The notes under the pieces were generated by a model. It was not told where the DNA came from, ran no database searches, and saw only the letters and a program-made list of their open reading frames with translations. From a virus (taxonomy: Duplodnaviria; Heunggongvirae; Uroviricota; Caudoviricetes), in the IMG/VR virus record IMGVR_UViG_2563366964_000009: 30,303 nt of DNA; one strand, written 5' to 3'. A program made the position numbers and the translations under genes. Below are positions 3,509 through 30,303 of this stretch, one piece after another (positions within the stretch are counted from its first letter, which is position 1; each line of letters starts with the position of its first letter).

Positions 3509-5780
3509 AGCCTCCGGGCGTTTTGTCCCTCCGTCAGCATTTGCCGCAGGCATCGGTGAGACGTTTACCGGTGCTTATGCATGGAACGCGCCACGCGAGG
3601 CCGTCGGGCGCGAAAGACCCCTTACACGTGACGAGATGCGTCAGGTGCAAGGTGTTTTATCCACGATTAATCGCCTGCCTTACTTTTTGCGCTCGCTGTT
3701 TACTTCACGCTATGACTACATCCGGCGCAATAAAAGCCCGGTGCACGGGTTTTATTTCCTCACATCCACTTTTCAGCGTCGTTTATGGCCGCGCATTGAG
3801 CGCGTTAATCAGCGCCATGAAATGAACACCGACGCGTCGTTGCTGTTTCTGGCAGAGCGTGACCACTATGCGCGCCTGCCTGGAATGAATGACAAGGAGC
3901 TGAAAAAGTTTGCCGCCCGTATCTCATCGCAGCTTTTCATAATGTATGAGGAACTCTGCGATGCCTGGGTGGATGCGCATGGCGAGAAAGAATCGCTGTT
4001 TACGGATGAGGCGCAGGCTCACCTGTATGGTCATGTTGCTGGCGCTGCACGTGCTTTCAATATTTCCCCGCTCTACTGGAAAAAATACCGTAAAGGGCAG
4101 ATGACCACGAGGCAGGCATATTCTGCCATTGCCCGTCTGTTTAACGATGAATGGTGGACTCATCAGCTTAAAGGCCAGCGTATGCGCTGGCATGAGGCGT
4201 TACTGATTGCTGTCGGGGAGGTCAATAAAGACCGTTCTCCTTATGCCAGTAAACATGCCATTCGTGATGTGCGTGCGCGCCGCCAGGCAAATCTGGAATT
4301 TCTTAAATCGTGTGACCTTGAAAACAGGGAAACCGGCGAGCGCATCGACCTTATCAGTAAGGTGATGGGCAGTATTTCTAATCCAGAAATTCGCCGGATG
4401 GAGCTGATGAACACCATCGCCGGTATTGAGCGTTACGCCGCCGCAGAGGGTGATGTGGGGATGTTTATCACGCTGACCGCGCCGTCAAAGTATCACCCGA
4501 CACGTCAGGTCGGAAAAGGCGAAAGTAAAACCGTCCAGCTTAATCACGGCTGGAACGATGAGGCATTTAATCCAAAGGATGCGCAGCGTTATCTCTGCCG
4601 CATCTGGAGCCTGATGCGCACGGCATTCAAGGATAATGATTTACAGGTCTACGGTTTGCGTGTCGTCGAGCCACACCACGACGGAACGCCGCACTGGCAT
4701 ATGATGCTTTTTTGTAATCCACGCCAGCGTAACCAGATTATCGAAATCATGCGGCGCTATGCGCTCAAAGAGGATGGTGACGAAAGAGGAGCCGCGCGAA
4801 ACCGTTTTCAGGCAAAGCACCTTAACCGGGGCGGTGCTGCGGGATATATCGCGAAATACATTTCAAAAAATATCGACGGCTATGCACTGGATGGTCAGCT
4901 CGATAACGATACCGGTAAGCCGCTTAAAGACACTGCAGCGGCTGTTACCGCATGGGCGTCAACGTGGCGCATCCCGCAATTTAAAACGGTTGGACTGCCG
5001 ACAATGGGGGCTTACCGTGAACTACGCAAATTGCCTCGCGGCGTCAGTATTGCTGATGAGTTTGACGAACGCGTCGAGGCTGCTCGCGCTGCCGCAGACA
5101 GTGGTGATTTTGCGTTGTATATCAGCGCGCAGGGTGGGGCAAATGTCCCGCGCGATTGTCAGACTGTCAGGGTTGCCCGTAGCCCGTCGGATGACGTTAA
5201 CGAGTACGAGGAAGAAGTCGAGAGAGTGGTCGGCATTTACGCGCCGCATCTCGGCGCGCGTCATATTCATATCACCAGAACGACGGACTGGCGCATTGTT
5301 CCGAAAGTTCCGGTCGTTGAGCCTTTGACTTTAAAAAGCGGCATCGCCGCGCCTCGGAGTCCTGTCAATAACTGTGGAAAACTCACCGGTGGTGATACTT
5401 CGTTACCGGCTCCCACACCTTCTGAGCACGCCGCAGCAGTGCTTAATCTGGTTGATGACGGTGTTATCGAATGGAGTGACCCGGAGGTCGTGAGGGCGCT
5501 CAGAGGTGCATTAAAACACAGTCGGAGAACGCCAAGTCGTCAGCAAAGAAACGGAAGCCCGTTAAAACCACATGAAATTGCACCATCGGCCAGACTGACC
5601 CGGTCGGAAAGAATGCAAATTACCCGTATCCGCGTTGACCTTGCTCAGAACGGTATCAGGCCGCAGCGATGGGAGCTTGAGGCGCTGGCGCGTGGCGCGA
5701 CCGTAAATTATGATGGGAAAAAATTCACGTATCCGGTTGTTGATGAGTGGCGGTGGTATATAGTTGATGGTAGGCGGTGA
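3498..5780 (+). CDS. A: Replication initiation protein A (rolling-circle nicking endonuclease); start taken at MAVKASGRF, alternative ATG at 3456
   Basis: 760-aa ORF; contains the tyrosine-rich active-site block GYIAKYISKNIDGY typical of P2 gpA/phiX174 A-type initiators; conserved position after the small early ORFs. Confidence 0.9.
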   Translation: MAVKASGRFVPPSAFAAGIGETFTGAYAWNAPREAVGRERPLTRDEMRQVQGVLSTINRLPYFLRSLFTSRYDYIRRNKSPVHGFYFLTSTFQRRLWPRIERVNQRHEMNTDASLLFLAERDHYARLPGMNDKELKKFAARISSQLFIMYEELCDAWVDAHGEKESLFTDEAQAHLYGHVAGAARAFNISPLYWKKYRKGQMTTRQAYSAIARLFNDEWWTHQLKGQRMRWHEALLIAVGEVNKDRSPYASKHAIRDVRARRQANLEFLKSCDLENRETGERIDLISKVMGSISNPEIRRMELMNTIAGIERYAAAEGDVGMFITLTAPSKYHPTRQVGKGESKTVQLNHGWNDEAFNPKDAQRYLCRIWSLMRTAFKDNDLQVYGLRVVEPHHDGTPHWHMMLFCNPRQRNQIIEIMRRYALKEDGDERGAARNRFQAKHLNRGGAAGYIAKYISKNIDGYALDGQLDNDTGKPLKDTAAAVTAWASTWRIPQFKTVGLPTMGAYRELRKLPRGVSIADEFDERVEAARAAADSGDFALYISAQGGANVPRDCQTVRVARSPSDDVNEYEEEVERVVGIYAPHLGARHIHITRTTDWRIVPKVPVVEPLTLKSGIAAPRSPVNNCGKLTGGDTSLPAPTPSEHAAAVLNLVDDGVIEWSDPEVVRALRGALKHSRRTPSRQQRNGSPLKPHEIAPSARLTRSERMQITRIRVDLAQNGIRPQRWELEALARGATVNYDGKKFTYPVVDEWRWYIVDGRR

Positions 5781-5956
5781 AAAGTTGAAGATGTGAACAC
5801 TGTTATTGGTAGGTAAGTAGATTTGTATGTATAAAGTAGTTGTTGTAGATATGAACAATCAGGCGTAGAATCGCCAGCCGGCTATGATGATTCCAGATGA
5901 TAATGGTTATCATTAGCTGTTGATTTATGATGTTCTTAACCACTAGAGAGACTAAT

Positions 5957-6154
5957 ATGAGCAAAAAGGTTATCACGATACAAGTAAGAGGTGGGCACGC
6001 AGGTGCTAAGCCTGTTCGTCGTTCAAAACTTGAACAAAGTGTTAATCGTTCCCTGCGTGCTTCGTTTTCTCTGGAAGGTAATCACATTACCAACACTTCA
6101 TGGTCTAAAATGTCGCAGGCTGCACGTTTTCTGACCAGAGTGGCTGTTGCTTAA
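5957..6154 (+). CDS. Small basic protein carrying a Fic-inhibitory-helix-like motif (candidate FicA-type antitoxin)
   Basis: 65-aa ORF from the ATG at 5957 (GAGAG SD-like upstream); motif S-F-S-L-E-G at 6062-6079 matches [S/T]xxxE[G/N]; its stop overlaps the convergent Fic gene stop in a shared TTAA (6151-6154). Confidence 0.5.
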   Translation: MSKKVITIQVRGGHAGAKPVRRSKLEQSVNRSLRASFSLEGNHITNTSWSKMSQAARFLTRVAVA

Positions 6155-7257
6155 AGCTCTTTGATTGCCCTTGAAATAAGGGCAATCAGATTTCTGTTAC
6201 TGTCGTGTATTGCGCGTCTTACAGCATAATGGTACGCACGTTTATTTCGCACATCTCCATCTAGCTTTTCCATATCAAATTCATAACCCATAGTAGTTGC
6301 AACAATCTGAAGAAATAATCGTATTGAACGACCATTACCATCTTGAAAGGGGTGGATCCATGCGATTTCTGCATGGAGAGTAGCTAGTTTATGAACTAAC
6401 TCTGCTTTAGAATTTATTTTGCTAAGTTCTTTTTTTGTGCAACCTCTAAGACAGGCTTTTAATGATTTTTTGACTTCATTATGTTCCATTGTTGGTCGCT
6501 CTTTATCTCCAACAACAACGGGATGGTTTCTGTATTCACCTGCCCAATCATAAATATGGCCAAAAAGAGCTTTATGGCATTCTAAGATCGTCTTTTCATT
6601 AATTGTTTTATTTTTGTCGGAGACATAGTTTATTATGAGCTGCGTACTTTTGATATATGAAATAACCATTTCGGCAAATTCAACTTGGTATTGATATTTT
6701 GCAAATACTAGATTTTTTGTTGCCATGTATTCATATCTTTCATTTTTCCCGTCACGTAAAAGAAAAATATTGTCTTTTTGGTGCTTTACTTTGATTACAT
6801 GATTGCGTTGAAATGGAAAGTTTTTGTCGTGAGGCAATATGTGAAAATAAGTTTCTTTTTTTAGCTTGTCTACACCAACAATTGAACCAAAAAGAAAAAG
6901 GGCTGCTGTTGTATTAAATAAAACACATACGGAGTCGCCAAGTTGTATCTCTTCGCGACTTAGATCGCATGTTTTTTTCTTATAATTAAATAAATGGGCG
7001 ATAGATGGTATGCTGTGATGATTGCGCAATGAACCTGAGCCACATATGACTTCTTTTGTCCTGCTATTCCAGTAATAATTAATGCTTCTCTTATTCTCTT
7101 GTGTTCTTTTTATATGAACCAACTTGAAGCTAAGTAGGCTTAAAGAGAATTCACCATTCTTTTTGACTATATTAACTTTTTGGTGTTTCATTTTGTTTTT
7201 TTTGTTAGTGTTATTGAAAAATGTTTTGAAGGTATCATGTTTTGAGTAAGAATGCAT
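6151..7257 (-). CDS. Fic/Doc-family protein (predicted AMP-transferase toxin) with an uncharacterised ~200-aa N-terminal domain
   Basis: 368-aa minus-strand ORF; canonical Fic active-site motif HPFQDGNGRSIR preceded by the core block KALFGHIYDWAGEYRN; strongly AT-rich, K/N/I/F/Y-rich N-terminal half. Confidence 0.85.
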   Translation of the reverse strand: MHSYSKHDTFKTFFNNTNKKNKMKHQKVNIVKKNGEFSLSLLSFKLVHIKRTQENKRSINYYWNSRTKEVICGSGSLRNHHSIPSIAHLFNYKKKTCDLSREEIQLGDSVCVLFNTTAALFLFGSIVGVDKLKKETYFHILPHDKNFPFQRNHVIKVKHQKDNIFLLRDGKNERYEYMATKNLVFAKYQYQVEFAEMVISYIKSTQLIINYVSDKNKTINEKTILECHKALFGHIYDWAGEYRNHPVVVGDKERPTMEHNEVKKSLKACLRGCTKKELSKINSKAELVHKLATLHAEIAWIHPFQDGNGRSIRLFLQIVATTMGYEFDMEKLDGDVRNKRAYHYAVRRAIHDSNRNLIALISRAIKEL

Positions 7258-7620
7258 GGTTATTATAACATGTTAGAGTTTTATCGCTAAAAAATGGATG
7301 TAGTGAGAAGTTTGTTGCTCATGACATTTACACTTAAGATGAACAGGAGGTGCTGTTTCGGTAAGATTATCTTTGTCCCATCACATAGCACAGCTCAATT
7401 TATCACTCATATCTTCATTTCCTTCCAGTGACAACACAAAGCTTTAAAGTCACCTTCTGTGATGCTGCTTTATGTCATTTCATAAGATCAGAGTTATGCA
7501 TGCATTAGGTGCATGGCTTTGCATGTATCAGAATTATACGTTTTCGGCGTCCGACATCACAGCTAGTTTGGATTCAGAGATGTCATGCAACCGCATTAAA
7601 ACCTCCACATGAAGCGGGCG

Positions 7621-19552: not shown

Positions 19553-20628
19553 CAGTGAAATACTACGCCATTCTGACTAATCAGGGCGCAGCACGGCTGG
19601 CTAACGCGACGATGCTCGGCAGTAAGCTGAATCTGACGCAAATGGCCGTTGGTGATGCGAATGGTGTCTTGCCGACACCAGACCCGGCACAGACAAAACT
19701 GATTAACCAGAAACGCATCGCGCCGCTGAATCTTCTGAGTGTTGACCCGAACAACCAGAGCCAGATTATTGCGGAGCAAATCATCCCTGAGAACGAGGGC
19801 GGATTCTGGATCCGTGAGATTGGGCTTTATGATGATGAAGGCGTACTCATTGCGGTGGCGAACTGCCCGGAAACGTACAAACCGCAGTTGCAGGAAGGCA
19901 GTGGTCGTACCCAGACTATCCGCATGATTCTGGTTGTCACGAATACCGAAGCTATCACGCTGAAAATCGACCCGTCGGTGGTACTGGCGACCCGTAAATA
20001 CGTGGATGATGAAGTCCTGGAATTAAGGCTGTATGTGGATGACCAGATGAGAAACCACATTGCCGCACAGGATCCTCATACCCAGTATGCGCAGAAACAT
20101 AATCCGACATTTACCGGAGAACCAAAAGCGCCGACGCCTGCCGCAGGAAATAACACCACGCGGATTGCGACCACTGCGTTTGTTCAGGCGGCTATTACCG
20201 CTCTGATTAACGGTGCGCCTGCCACGCTGGATACACTGAAAGAAATTGCCGCAGCCATTAACAATGACCCGAAATTCAGCACTACCATTAACAATGCGCT
20301 GGCAGGTAAACAACCGCTGGACAATACGCTGACTCATTTGAGTGGAAAGGATGTTGCCGGTCTTCTCGCATACCTTGGTTTGGGAGAAGGTGCTCCAGCT
20401 GTTGTGGTCCCGTTCGTTTATCCGACAGCGGCTATGCGAACAACTGCATTCGGCTCGGGATCCGTCATGCTACTTTTGGAATATATCGTGGAGTTTTTCA
20501 CTTCCTCAGATTACACGGCCCTGGTGATAAGGTTTCATTTGCCTGTACTATCTCCAGATCAGGCGAAGTTTTTTCGTAGTGGTAATTATGAGAAAGTTGA
20601 GGCAGGTCGGTGCAATTCAGCAAGCTAG
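19549..20628 (+). CDS. H: Tail fibre protein H: constant N-terminal part fused at the crossover site to an ~80-aa variable C-terminal cassette (current orientation)
   Basis: N-terminal ~270 aa resemble P2 gpH (...NTEAITLKIDPSVVLATRKYVDDE..., ...NNALAGKQP...); the crossover site 20363-20388 lies in frame (LLAYLGLGE); total 359 aa, much shorter than P2 H as recalled. Confidence 0.85.
   Translation: MTVKYYAILTNQGAARLANATMLGSKLNLTQMAVGDANGVLPTPDPAQTKLINQKRIAPLNLLSVDPNNQSQIIAEQIIPENEGGFWIREIGLYDDEGVLIAVANCPETYKPQLQEGSGRTQTIRMILVVTNTEAITLKIDPSVVLATRKYVDDEVLELRLYVDDQMRNHIAAQDPHTQYAQKHNPTFTGEPKAPTPAAGNNTTRIATTAFVQAAITALINGAPATLDTLKEIAAAINNDPKFSTTINNALAGKQPLDNTLTHLSGKDVAGLLAYLGLGEGAPAVVVPFVYPTAAMRTTAFGSGSVMLLLEYIVEFFTSSDYTALVIRFHLPVLSPDQAKFFRSGNYEKVEAGRCNSAS
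20363..20388. repeat. Invertase crossover site (gix/hix/pix-like), left copy
   Basis: TTCTCGCATACCTTGGTTTGGGAGAA, an imperfect 26-bp palindrome; matches the reverse complement of 22185-22210 at 21 of 26 positions, with the right 14 bp identical. Confidence 0.7.
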
Positions 20629-21944
20629 GTTGTGTCTACAAACTTTGCACATATCGGTGAGACAGCATGGGGTGTGGCAGGAAACGATATCTCCTATCAT
20701 GATGGCATCACTGGAATTCCGACAGGACGGTCGCAATGCAAAGTTATCTTTTAAGCGCTGAGAAATGTTGGTTTTTTCGTTTCTAGCTGAAAGCCAAATA
20801 TTGGAATTACGGTGCTGGGCACGGCGATAGAATCAAAATTGTTTTCACTGTTGACGGCGAGTCTACAGAGCCGGCCCCAGAACGAAGATTCTGATATGAT
20901 ACTGACACATTTGAGGATTGGGGCTGGTTTCCTGAATCTATTCATGAGGGCGAAATTGCCGCCGCCTGTCCCACTAGTCATGAATCTATTAATAACATCC
21001 ACGGAAGAGTAACCATAATGCAAGGGCCTGGAAGAACGCCGGTTGGTGGCCAGCGCGATGAGAAAGTTGAGCAATACAATAAGGGTCTGGATTTTCTAGA
21101 GGATTATAAACGTGTCGACACATACGGTGCTCTAACGATTGCATGGTCAACGCCATCGGAAGAACGGGACGGTTGGAATCCGGTGACATGTAGTTAGCTG
21201 TTACCGCCACCCGCTGTATATGATCCAGCAGGACATTAACACTGGCTGATTGTGGCTGCAATAGCTTCCATCAGTCTGATTCATTTAAATTAACAGGCCG
21301 GACGGAAGCCGACGCAGGATGAAACAACGCGTGGTACCGCGGTGCTGCAGCGTATTCACCGGGTGAATGCTACGCCTCCGAATATGGCGCCCAATTTTAT
21401 CTAGCCTGATTTGCGTGTGGCGTTGACCGTTCAATAGCGGGAGAACCGTAATTGATGGCCAGTATATATTCCACTGTATCATCCACCCCCAAATTGTATG
21501 GGTCCACATTCTCACCTCTAAGGTCATCATTAGCGCTCCATCCAGTACCTGGAAATACGGCCATGTTTCCCTGAACGTGTTCAACAAGTTCATGACTATT
21601 CAAACAGGCGGCGACACTTAGGTCCGCATGAGTTTATTCTTGAGACTCAACCCTTGACGGAATTCTGTCAGCAACGCATCTATATTATCGTTCTTCTGCT
21701 TCCATTGTAACTAGCGCATTATCATCAACAACAATTTTCATTACATCGCCCTCACATTAACCTTAATCCCGATATGTCGCGGTATGATCGAAACGGAATA
21801 ACGCCCTTTTCCCGGCGATTTAAATGTATAACTGCATCGTGACAATCCTGGCGGATTTTCGCCGAATCCGTATTGAAAGGAAATAGCGTGGGTTGCCACA
21901 CGGCATGCTTAACTAGTGAAATGATCAAAGTTTGCAGACTAAAC

Positions 21945-22210
21945 CTACCTTAATAATATGCAACCACCATCCGCACCTTTATCGTACACCCCGCTACCAG
22001 AGACATCCGCCTGGTCTTGGGATAGTACAAGGGAGTGTCCACTTTTAGACAGGGCAGAGTAACCTGTGAAAGAGCCATACGCCACATTATATCCCCAAGG
22101 CACCCTAAACCACCCCCAGTCAGAAACGATATTTGCCATTGCCGGGGTCGGACAAAAGACCGGGACCACATCCGTTGTAGCACCTTCTCCCAAACCAACG
22201 TTTATGAAAA
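21945..22210 (-). other. Promoterless alternative tail-fibre C-terminal cassette (would be fused to H after inversion)
   Basis: Minus-strand reading frame through the right crossover site encodes ...GLGEGATTDVVPVFCPTPAM..., homologous to the current H C-terminus (...GLGEGAPAVVVPFVYPTAAM...); stop at 21945-21947. Confidence 0.55.
22185..22210. repeat. Invertase crossover site, right copy (inverted)
   Basis: TTCTCCCAAACCAACGTTTATGAAAA; its reverse complement TTTTCATAAACGTTGGTTTGGGAGAA aligns with the left copy. Confidence 0.7.
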
Positions 22211-28058: not shown

Positions 28059-29221
28059 TGCCGGATGCGTTGACATTTGATGCAGGCAGTACGCTGACGC
28101 CGGATTACATGCTGATGCTCGACAGCAGGGATATTACCGGCAATATCAGCGACCGTCTGATGAGCATGACCCTGACGGATAACCGGGGCTTTGAGGCTGA
28201 CCAGCTTGATATTGAACTGAACGATGCCGACGGGCAGGTCGGGCTGCCGGTTCGTGGCGCTGTCCTGACGGTGTATATCGGCTGGAAAGGTTTTGCCCTG
28301 GTATGCAAAGGGAAATTTACCGTTGATGAGGTTGAACACCGGGGCGCACCGGATGTGGTCACCATCCGCGCACGGAGTGCAGATTTTCGCGGGACGCTCA
28401 ATTCCCGCCGGGAAGGCTCCTGGCATGACACCACGCTCGGTGCAATTGTTGAGGCGATAGCCACCCGTAACAGGCTGGAAGCCAGTGTCGCTCCGTCACT
28501 GGCCGGAATTAAAATCCCGCACATCGACCAGTCGCAGGAGTCTGATGCAAAATTCCTGACCCGCCTTGCTGAACGCAACGGCGGTGAGGTGTCGGTAAAA
28601 ATGGGAAAACTGTTGTTTCTCAAAGCGGGGCAGGGGGTGATGGCCAGCGGTAAAAAAATCCCGCAGATTACCATCACCCGCAGCGACGGCGACCGTCATC
28701 ATTTTGCGATTGCTGACCGTGGAGCCTACACCGGCGTAACGGCAAAGTGGTTACACACCAAAGACCCGAAGCCACAAAAGCAGAAGGTAAAACTGAAGCG
28801 CAAAAAGAAAGAGAAACACCTGCGCGCACTGGAGCACCCGAAAGCAAAACCGGTCACGCAGAAGAAAGCGCCAAAAGTACCGGAAGCGCGCGAAGGTGAA
28901 TACATGGCAGGTGAGGCTGACAACGTTTTTGCCCTGACCACGGTATATGCCACGAAAGCGCAGGCCATGCGCGCCGCTCAGGCGAAGTGGGATAAGCTGC
29001 AGCGGGGTGTTGCGGAGTTCTCCATCAGTCTGGCTACTGGTCGGGCAGATATTTACACGGAAACGCCGGTCAAAGTGTCAGGCTTTAAGCGCGTCATAGA
29101 CGAGCAGGACTGGACAATCACTAAGGTGACACATTTTCTGAATAATAGCGGCTTCACGACGTCCTTGGAGCTTGAGGTCAGGCTTTCTGATGTGGAGTAC
29201 GAAACAGAAGATGATGAGTGA
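28058..29221 (+). CDS. D: Tail protein D (late gene D)
   Basis: 387 aa resembling P2 gpD. Confidence 0.92.
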   Translation: MPDALTFDAGSTLTPDYMLMLDSRDITGNISDRLMSMTLTDNRGFEADQLDIELNDADGQVGLPVRGAVLTVYIGWKGFALVCKGKFTVDEVEHRGAPDVVTIRARSADFRGTLNSRREGSWHDTTLGAIVEAIATRNRLEASVAPSLAGIKIPHIDQSQESDAKFLTRLAERNGGEVSVKMGKLLFLKAGQGVMASGKKIPQITITRSDGDRHHFAIADRGAYTGVTAKWLHTKDPKPQKQKVKLKRKKKEKHLRALEHPKAKPVTQKKAPKVPEAREGEYMAGEADNVFALTTVYATKAQAMRAAQAKWDKLQRGVAEFSISLATGRADIYTETPVKVSGFKRVIDEQDWTITKVTHFLNNSGFTTSLELEVRLSDVEYETEDDE

Positions 29222-29302: not shown

Positions 29303-29521
29303 ATGTTTCATTGTCCTTTATGTCAGCATGCCGCACATGCGCGTACAAGTCGCTATATCACTGACACGACAAAAGAGCGTTATCACCAGTGTCAGAACGT
29401 GAATTGCAGCGCCACGTTCATCACTTATGAGTCGGTACAGCGATACATCGTGAAGCCGGGAGAAGTCCACGCCGTAAGACCGCACCCGTTGCCGTCAGGG
29501 CAGCAAATTATGTGGATGTAA
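29303..29521 (+). CDS. ogr: Late transcription activator Ogr (zinc-finger)
   Basis: 72-aa protein MFHCPLCQHAAHARTSRYITDTTKERYHQCQNVNCSATFITYESV... with a Cys4 zinc finger, matching P2 Ogr as recalled; the ORF-track start at 29240 is a TTG extension. Confidence 0.9.
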   Translation: MFHCPLCQHAAHARTSRYITDTTKERYHQCQNVNCSATFITYESVQRYIVKPGEVHAVRPHPLPSGQQIMWM

Positions 29522-29530
29522 TTACAAACA

Positions 29531-29563
29531 GAAAGCCCCTCAGTCGAGGGGCTTTCTGTTTTG
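29531..29563 (+). terminator. Rho-independent terminator after ogr
   Basis: Hairpin AAAGCCCCTC-AGTC-GAGGGGCTTT followed by CTGTTTT. Confidence 0.65.
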
Positions 29564-29661
29564 GGGAATATTCTTCATTAAAAGTAGTGGATCACGTTTA
29601 ATAAACTATGTTTATCATATACTTAAAAGTCAATCTTTAAAGTTGGACAGGTTGGTGGAAA

Positions 29662-30303
29662 ATGGAAAAAGTTATAATTGAGCTTGATAATCGTTGGGAG
29701 TTAGCTGATTTCGCGGTCTTAACGAAAGAGTATTTGCAGCTATATGGTTTTTTTTATGGCCTAAAAGGAGGATCAAGAGGATATTCAACAATGCCTTGGG
29801 AGGGTGGGCACAGTGTGGTGAATTTTTTTAGAGGGGCTTACAGTGCGACTCCACCAGATTTACGTCCTGTAGTGAAAAAAATTCAGTATGCCTCTCCTGG
29901 CTTTATTGAATTGTCTGCTCTTATTGATATCTCTTGGCAGATTGCTGAGTTAGTTACTGCTGTTGGTGGAAGTATTCTGGCTGCCAACAAAGTTTACGAT
30001 CAGGTGATGCGTACATATCGACAAAGAGAATGGGCAAAGTTGAAATCAGAGAAGCTGCGTATACAGAATCAAATTAAAGAGATTGAACTTGTTTCTGACG
30101 CAGTTAAATCACTTGAATCTGTGATGGCACTTAGTGAAGAACAACGTAAAAACTTGGTTCAACTATCGGGGGCAGATGAACTGGTTCAGTTAAAGATACT
30201 TTTGGCTGTTTACCGACGGTTATCTCCTCTTGTTGAGTTGCAAAACAGCGGGAAAGCTAATTTTTCTGCTGGGAAAAATAAAAATTTAAAAGCGTCCGAT
30301 TAA
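29662..30303 (+). CDS. Hypothetical protein, AT-rich, unknown function (prophage-end moron or host-flank gene)
   Basis: 213-aa ORF with ATG at 29662, a GGTGG SD-like sequence and a candidate -10 TATACT at about 29618-29623; lies behind the ogr terminator; AT-rich relative to the phage late genes; I recognise no motif. Confidence 0.55.
   Translation: MEKVIIELDNRWELADFAVLTKEYLQLYGFFYGLKGGSRGYSTMPWEGGHSVVNFFRGAYSATPPDLRPVVKKIQYASPGFIELSALIDISWQIAELVTAVGGSILAANKVYDQVMRTYRQREWAKLKSEKLRIQNQIKEIELVSDAVKSLESVMALSEEQRKNLVQLSGADELVQLKILLAVYRRLSPLVELQNSGKANFSAGKNKNLKASD

Follow-up and report, generated by a model that had tools for sequence, protein, structure and literature searches.

At the right-hand end of a P2-like prophage sequence, just beyond ogr, the base composition changes abruptly and a last open reading frame appears. 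The question raised by this locus is whether the gene belongs to the phage or to its bacterial host, and what its product might do. The window, by which we mean the whole stretch of DNA analyzed, is 30,303 nucleotides long (IMG/VR record IMGVR_UViG_2563366964_000009), and its last triplet is the stop codon of a 213-aa ORF that starts with ATG (Table 1). The tail genes have a GC content of 0.53-0.60, which falls to 0.38-0.42 over positions 29450-30199 and is about 39% directly 3' of the ogr terminator; this composition sets the terminal DNA apart from the tail genes. The first-pass annotation had described a 213-aa ORF in AT-rich DNA past ogr, and both the ORF call and the GC profile bear this out. 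The ORF is a real gene under strong purifying selection, because a family profile built from 41 homologues matched 793 of 1.84 billion cluster representatives (E ≤ 1e-3), and dN/dS was 0.06-0.07 in the two homologue pairs with unsaturated dS. For the remaining pairs dS was saturated and dN was just 0.14-0.33. Homologues in Kosakonia and Enterobacter have their N-terminus, MEKVIIELD.RWEL, in common with the ORF protein.

Over its last 1.1 kb, the window matches E. coli chromosomes with the gene order gpD, ogr, ORF, fieF, pfkA. The first-pass annotation had placed the gene either at the prophage end as cargo or in the host flank, and had suggested locating attR and comparing a phage-free strain. 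Both comparisons point the same way. Strain 22AR0750 (locus L003) has a complete P2-like prophage between cpxP and fieF, and a 47-bp att core, GATAAAAAAAACCCCCACATCATGTGGGGGAAGACAGGGATGGTGTC, is present as an exact duplicate at the two prophage ends (L003 2330-2376 and 31952-31998). The ORF lies inside these repeats, 82 bp from the right copy (attR). When the site is empty, as in a phage-free strain (L004), cpxP adjoins fieF, a single core copy is present and the ORF is absent. The fieF leader is found in 5426 of 5426 E. coli genomes, and in most of them the match stops at the core. On the left side, in a genome with a 100% identical integrase region, window position 1 is preceded by cpxP and the core at a distance of 116 bp. 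No copy of the core was found within the window, which therefore lies wholly inside the prophage. The window and the 22AR0750 prophage are collinear and 95-98% identical outside two variable regions, 5758-7584 and 20392-22165. Being AT-rich and at the extreme window end, the ORF might have been taken for an ordinary host gene or the first gene of an adjacent island. Its position within the att repeats, its absence from the empty site and from sister prophages, and its persistence only alongside prophage remnants refute a host origin, by the very criterion that the first-pass annotation had set. The gene belongs to the phage, as accessory cargo of a P2-like prophage that sits between cpxP and fieF.

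The limits of the cargo could be read from sister prophages at the same att site. In SCU-109 and PK8566 (L009, L010), ogr is followed directly by an Int arm-type repeat, TGTGGACgctaTGTGGAC, and the core. Alignment with these cargo-free elements reveals a clean insert of about 760 nt that replaces about 10 nt; in other genomes the insert measures 754 nt. On its 3' side the cargo is followed by the same arm-type repeat and then the att core, so that the Int arm sites are left intact. Homology to the window is lost at position 29555 in P2 and 75 other phage records, and at about 29555 in the cargo-free sisters. Salmonella phage STYP1 (KX833211 / NC_073747, positions 28487-28946) differs in that its match reaches 29661, the base before the ATG, after which the record ends; this record has the cargo leader without the gene, and it appears that the deposited sequence was cut at a predicted gene boundary. 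Since the cargo was inserted after the ogr terminator and before the Int arm sites in attP, the ORF travels with the phage. No homologue was found in sequenced phage isolates (tblastn, 50,697 phage records), and it is solely from the att boundaries that we infer packaging of the ORF in virions. The features of the segment are collected in Table 1, for which the ogr coordinates were taken over from locus L001 (offset 21199).

Table 1. Features at the right-hand end of the window, in window positions.
Feature	Position	Strand	Basis or remark
ogr (late transcription activator), final conserved P2 gene 5' of the cargo	29303..29521	+	ogrK annotation in matching E. coli genomes
ogr intrinsic terminator, GCCCCTC-AGTC-GAGGGGC followed by TTTCTGTTTT	29535-29562	+	sequence reading; 'terminator' feature of P2 record AF063097 under the match
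Cargo (moron) segment, about 760 nt in all	29556..30303, continuing 12 nt past the window end and ORF stop	+	alignment, arm homology limits, GC
Candidate -10 element TATACT, weak, with poor -35	29618-29623	+	by eye; missed by consensus scan
Shine-Dalgarno-like GGTGG just 5' of the ATG	29654-29658	+	sequence reading
213-aa ORF, core-only PD-T4-10B toxin homologue	29662..30303	+	ORF call, PADLOC, family profile, dN/dS
Predicted N-terminal alpha/beta domain, aa 1-87, with invariant motifs PW.GG.S.VNF and QYASPG.IEL	29662..29922	+	AlphaFold, alignment
Predicted 67-residue helix (aa 88-154), then helical hairpin (aa 159-195) with invariant K178 and R185	29923..30246	+	AlphaFold, alignment
Hydrophobic start of the long helix, aa 90-108, ISWQIAELVTAVGGSILAA	29929..29985	+	KD19 1.35
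Stem-loop GCGTCCG-ATTAAA-CGGACGC spanning the stop codon: 5' arm and loop	30292-30303	+	sequence; continuation read in L003

The gene had been credited with its own candidate promoter, which is a weak one. A -10 element can be picked out by eye, its -35 is poor, and a consensus scan found no sigma-70 site on the plus strand between the ogr terminator and the ATG. The position of the TATACT element is only partly conserved in homologous cargo regions, where it aligns with GATAAT in one locus (L067). Promoter-like sites in the leader are on the minus strand and directed away from the ORF. The gap between ogr and the ATG is 140 nt, and a small antitoxin ORF in this leader was considered and rejected, since its largest content is a 10-codon ORF. 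At the other end of the gene, the 3' arm of the stem-loop over the stop codon falls just beyond the window end, and the att-core hairpin with its T8 tract follows 82 nt downstream on the sense strand of the ORF. This hairpin, CCCCCACATGATGTGGGGG plus T8, is the terminator of cpxP and is included in the 47-bp core, both in the two 22AR0750 copies and at L088 1039-1085; integration therefore remakes a terminator at both junctions.

Scans of the ORF protein against Pfam, PHROGs and NCBIfam gave nothing meaningful, and there was no structural match and no fold or motif indicating an activity. The remark that the protein has no recognisable motif thus holds for these three collections and fails for PADLOC, in which the PD-T4-10_B profile PDLC04024 matched with E = 1.3e-34 over positions 139-346 of 353. 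Profile PDLC04025 matched with near-complete coverage (E = 7e-23, positions 28-231 of 244), and PDLC04026 matched with E = 3e-19. PD-T4-10 is a toxin-antitoxin abortive-infection system of E. coli ECOR65, obtained by functional selection, in which two ORFs overlap: B is toxic alone and neutralised by A, and A could not be deleted (Vassallo et al., 2022; PMC9519451). Deletion of B abolishes T4 resistance, and protection was reported against T-even phages (PMC9519451). The earlier guess of a defence or superinfection-exclusion moron fits the PD-T4-10_B match, the function itself being deduced from it.

A census of the family distinguished short forms of about 205-240 aa, to which the ORF belongs, from long forms, which reach about 325-370 aa and have an extra region at the N-terminus. 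The long forms span positions 3-345 of the 353-position PADLOC profile, and the extra region is Pfam DUF6575 (PF20215). From the PADLOC profile lengths, the published locus of 1.6 kb and the long-form loci of other genera, we infer that canonical PD-T4-10 consists of antitoxin A and a B protein of about 350 aa in which DUF6575 precedes the core. A profile search with the long forms, directed at the canonical ECOR65 PD-T4-10B, returned no E. coli member. By sequence comparison, the ORF is the C-terminal core of PD-T4-10B alone, without DUF6575 or PD-T4-10A. It is homologous to the C-terminal ~200 residues of B and has the same invariant residues as the long forms, yet it is a single gene, whereas PD-T4-10 has two overlapping ones. 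The rules of PADLOC and DefenseFinder would not call it as a complete PD-T4-10 system. Like orphan or solitary toxins and single-gene Abi proteins, the ORF is a toxin-family domain without a cognate antitoxin on a mobile element; the likeness to that class is a functional analogy and not one of sequence family.

The AlphaFold model of the protein (pLDDT 86) has the helical C-terminal half that had been expected from the sequence (Table 1). Columns W12, Y24, Y28, G48, G49, S51, Y76, A77, S78, P79 and G80 are invariant, and they are invariant in the long forms as well. Short and long forms differ in the segment after the ASPG motif, which in short forms is a hydrophobic helix (n = 206; median KD19 1.95, 76% at ≥1.6) that the PD-T4-10 long forms lack (n = 63; median 0.89, 2% at ≥1.6). 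This contrast suggests that the solitary forms may use the helix for membrane association or self-association. In the ORF protein itself the value is borderline and under the usual 1.6. The description of the protein as apparently soluble therefore needs a caveat, since residues 90-108 are moderately hydrophobic and the corresponding segment is transmembrane-like in most short-form homologues.

For a comparison of neighbouring genes, 51 genomic and 17 viral loci were fetched and their ORFs called. Upstream of the long-form gene, each of the five long-form loci has an ORF of 114-147 aa on the same strand that abuts or overlaps the start of that gene. Two of these five ORFs match PD-T4-10_A strongly (E = 1.6e-39 and 1.6e-43), one weakly (E = 0.003) and two not at all. 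At about 50 short-form loci, blastp clustering found no such upstream ORF and no other conserved neighbour, and such neighbour clusters as there were all stemmed from closely related elements. Downstream genes of about 200-220 aa on the same strand were considered as partners and dismissed, as they are mutually unrelated and without PADLOC matches. In three further loci (L080 1567-3227, L081 1608-3205 and L082 2579-4102), a PD-T4-10A-like gene is followed by a DUF6575 protein. Where PD-T4-10_A is found upstream of DUF6575 proteins without the core (E from 1e-22 to 4.5e-36), these proteins either have a PDC-M63B-like C-terminus (406 aa) or are short (232 aa), with an overlapping 143-aa ORF after them. 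PD-T4-10A thus accompanies DUF6575 whatever the C-terminal domain, and the core is therefore a separable module. The pattern suggests that A and DUF6575 form a cassette with interchangeable or separately encoded third modules.

In the prophage, neither element of this cassette is present. HMM searches of all six frames of the window and of 40 kb of L003 found neither PD-T4-10_A (best E 2.7, against 7e-59 for the positive control) nor DUF6575 (best E 1.2, against 9e-31), and the accessory ORFs of the window have no PD-T4-10_A match. There is also no cognate antitoxin gene in an operon with the ORF, as there would be in a type II toxin-antitoxin module. The ORF is genuinely solitary within the prophage.

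The company kept by core-only forms elsewhere is mixed. Around some 42 short-form loci, 150 neighbours include many defence families once or twice each, in a raw tally without background control: PifA, ShosA, ThsB, HmaC, AbiU, GajA, PD-Lambda-4_A, PsyrA, QatA, AriA, PDC-S21 and PDC-S23. Mobile-element genes and ordinary housekeeping genes are found as well. On Pseudomonas P4-like satellite or prophage elements (L007 6001-7668; L017, L070, L071, L075), a DUF4917 / PDC-S21 (SIR2-like; E = 2.5e-97) gene lies 26-27 nt 3' of the short form, and the two may form an operon of defence candidates. Another two-gene arrangement may exist in Xanthomonas (L055, L057), where the ORF just 5' of a family member of 222-243 aa encodes a Fic/Doc-like protein of 266 aa (PDC-S23, E = 7.5e-09) and overlaps or abuts its start. 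A recent study tested 11 'partial' defence systems of P4 elements, and 8 of them gave protection (PMC13586616).

Within E. coli, the ORF is present in 160 of 5426 complete genomes, always with at least 99% identity and always on the chromosome. Each of the five carrier genomes inspected has the order ogr-ORF-attR-fieF or a decayed version of it, and one decayed prophage remnant has a 5'-truncated copy of the ORF. Because the integrase family occurs in 790 E. coli genomes, about one-fifth of the prophages at the cpxP-fieF site carry the cargo. In some genomes, among them E. coli ECONIH6 (L085 1487-2856), an IS150 lies between ogr and the cargo ORF, and such insertion is the probable reason that no more than 85 of the 160 carriers match ogr and the ORF contiguously.

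To see how this position is used, 60 records were taken as a spread sample from the 2123 having gpD-ogr. The majority are empty between ogr and the arm site, and four have the ORF insert; from these contents it follows that the ogr-attP junction is a real, sparsely used cargo slot. In one record, that of E. coli ES5 (L089 1864-2265, minus strand), the slot holds a different cargo, which encodes in the opposite orientation a hypothetical protein of 133 aa without a match in Pfam or PADLOC. Homologues with 72-77% identity in Kosakonia and in an IMG/VR contig likewise follow gpD or ogr. A plasmid search for homologues returned only one Salmonella contig and one Vibrio megaplasmid. The former, Salmonella enterica NZ_CP092913.1 (72202-72840), encodes a 100% identical protein on an 80-kb record labelled as a non-mobilizable plasmid, which could be a contig bearing a prophage and not a plasmid proper.

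Similar to the classical P2 morons old, tin and Z/fun and the genes of the P2 defence hotspots (Rousset et al., 2022, PMC9122126; Vassallo et al., 2022), the ORF is an AT-rich, independently acquired accessory gene present in only some of otherwise collinear phages. The classical hotspots are gpA-portal and Z/fun (PMC9519451; PMC13586616), whereas the ORF sits elsewhere, between the ogr terminator and the attP arm sites. A preprint (10.1101/2024.10.15.618418) describes a third hotspot, 'tail protein to CI', and lists PD-T4-10 among the hotspot systems of P2-like phages; the site of the ORF falls inside this third hotspot. A 368-aa ORF in the gpA-to-portal (old/tin) hotspot of the same prophage (6151-7257, minus strand) encodes a Fic domain (Pfam E = 6.5e-17) and matches PDC-S04 (E = 2.7e-33) and SoFic (E = 1.8e-13) in PADLOC, which makes it a candidate second defence cargo; the 22AR0750 sister prophage has no annotated gene in its gpA-portal gap. 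The second block without similarity to L003, at 20392-22165, covers the tail-fibre, invertase and Z-fun region, and its ORFs have no PADLOC matches.

Judged by family membership and genomic setting, the ORF probably functions as a stand-alone phage-defence gene. The reading to which we lean, with the balance only slightly in its favor, is that this prophage cargo encodes a free-standing PD-T4-10B core that works as a single-gene factor for defence or superinfection exclusion. Low-level expression in the lysogen would come from the gene's own weak promoter, and the protein would hold itself inactive, perhaps through self-association or membrane association via the hydrophobic start of the long helix. 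Upon infection by a competing phage, it would arrest or kill the cell or block the invader, and the prophage's host population would be protected. Control of the solitary core would be intrinsic rather than exerted by A-DUF6575. Going by co-occurrence, the A-DUF6575 pair would act as a detachable control cassette and the core as a swappable, autonomous working module. If DUF6575 were the toxic part of PD-T4-10B, the core could instead be a sensor or scaffold.

Other roles have to be weighed against a defence function. The gene might instead serve lysogenic conversion or host fitness without any part in phage defence, for example as a factor at the membrane or in stress that benefits the host. 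This would agree with the lack of a recognisable enzymatic or defence motif, with the possible membrane helix in many homologues and with the housekeeping surroundings of some short-form loci. We consider it unlikely, as toxicity and defence are the only functional datum for the domain family (PMC9519451) and as the genomic company is rich in named defence genes and mobile elements, in a tally without background control. Quite improbable is a counter-defence decoy, in which the stripped toxin core disturbs host PD-T4-10-type systems, e.g., by forming mixed inactive oligomers, so that the phage or lysogen escapes abortive infection. The gene is indeed phage-borne and without control domain or antitoxin, and the predicted long helix would suit hetero-oligomerisation. 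Against this, core-only forms are very common, and most of about 50 loci have no recognisable phage or mobile neighbours and no long form nearby. The ORF also keeps every catalytic-looking invariant residue of the long forms, which is unexpected for a decoy. PD-T4-10 is moreover reported against T-even phages and not P2, and anti-defence genes are rare in P2 (PMC13586616).

It is less probable still that the ORF is an inert, decaying remnant of PD-T4-10 from which the antitoxin and the 5' half of the toxin gene were lost. Such a history could be read from the restriction of the match to the C-terminal part of the B profile, but proteins of this short architecture are a standard, complete form within the family and have a PADLOC profile to themselves (PDLC04025, 244 positions). 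The gene has a clean start codon, a Shine-Dalgarno-like sequence and an N-terminus of the kind common to the Kosakonia and Enterobacter homologues; the dN/dS values and the near-identity in 160 genomes show conservation, which contradicts decay.

A stand-alone defence factor encoded by the prophage thus remains our preferred explanation. A broader version of it, which we put forward tentatively and hold to be somewhat doubtful, is that core-only proteins form an autonomous, antitoxin-free, single-gene abortive-infection family that is widespread across bacterial phyla and often membrane-anchored by the helix specific to short forms. A and DUF6575 would then be a portable control cassette for different effectors, i.e., the core, a PDC-M63B-like domain or a separate protein, and the P2 gene would be an effector without this cassette that is controlled in another way.

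The PD-T4-10 toxin family was already known; what is new is an antitoxin-less, DUF6575-less relative at an under-described P2 cargo site. The ogr-attP junction is hereby documented as a real, rarely filled slot. The comparisons show A going with DUF6575, a core that is swappable and frequently stands alone, and a hydrophobic helix confined to the solitary forms; with this pattern, the organisation of PD-T4-10 can be put to a direct test. If the solitary core protects, it would be a compact (about 0.76 kb) single-gene defence in about one-fifth of the P2-like prophages at the cpxP-fieF site and in about 3% of complete E. coli genomes, and it would reveal which half of the PD-T4-10B toxin does the work.
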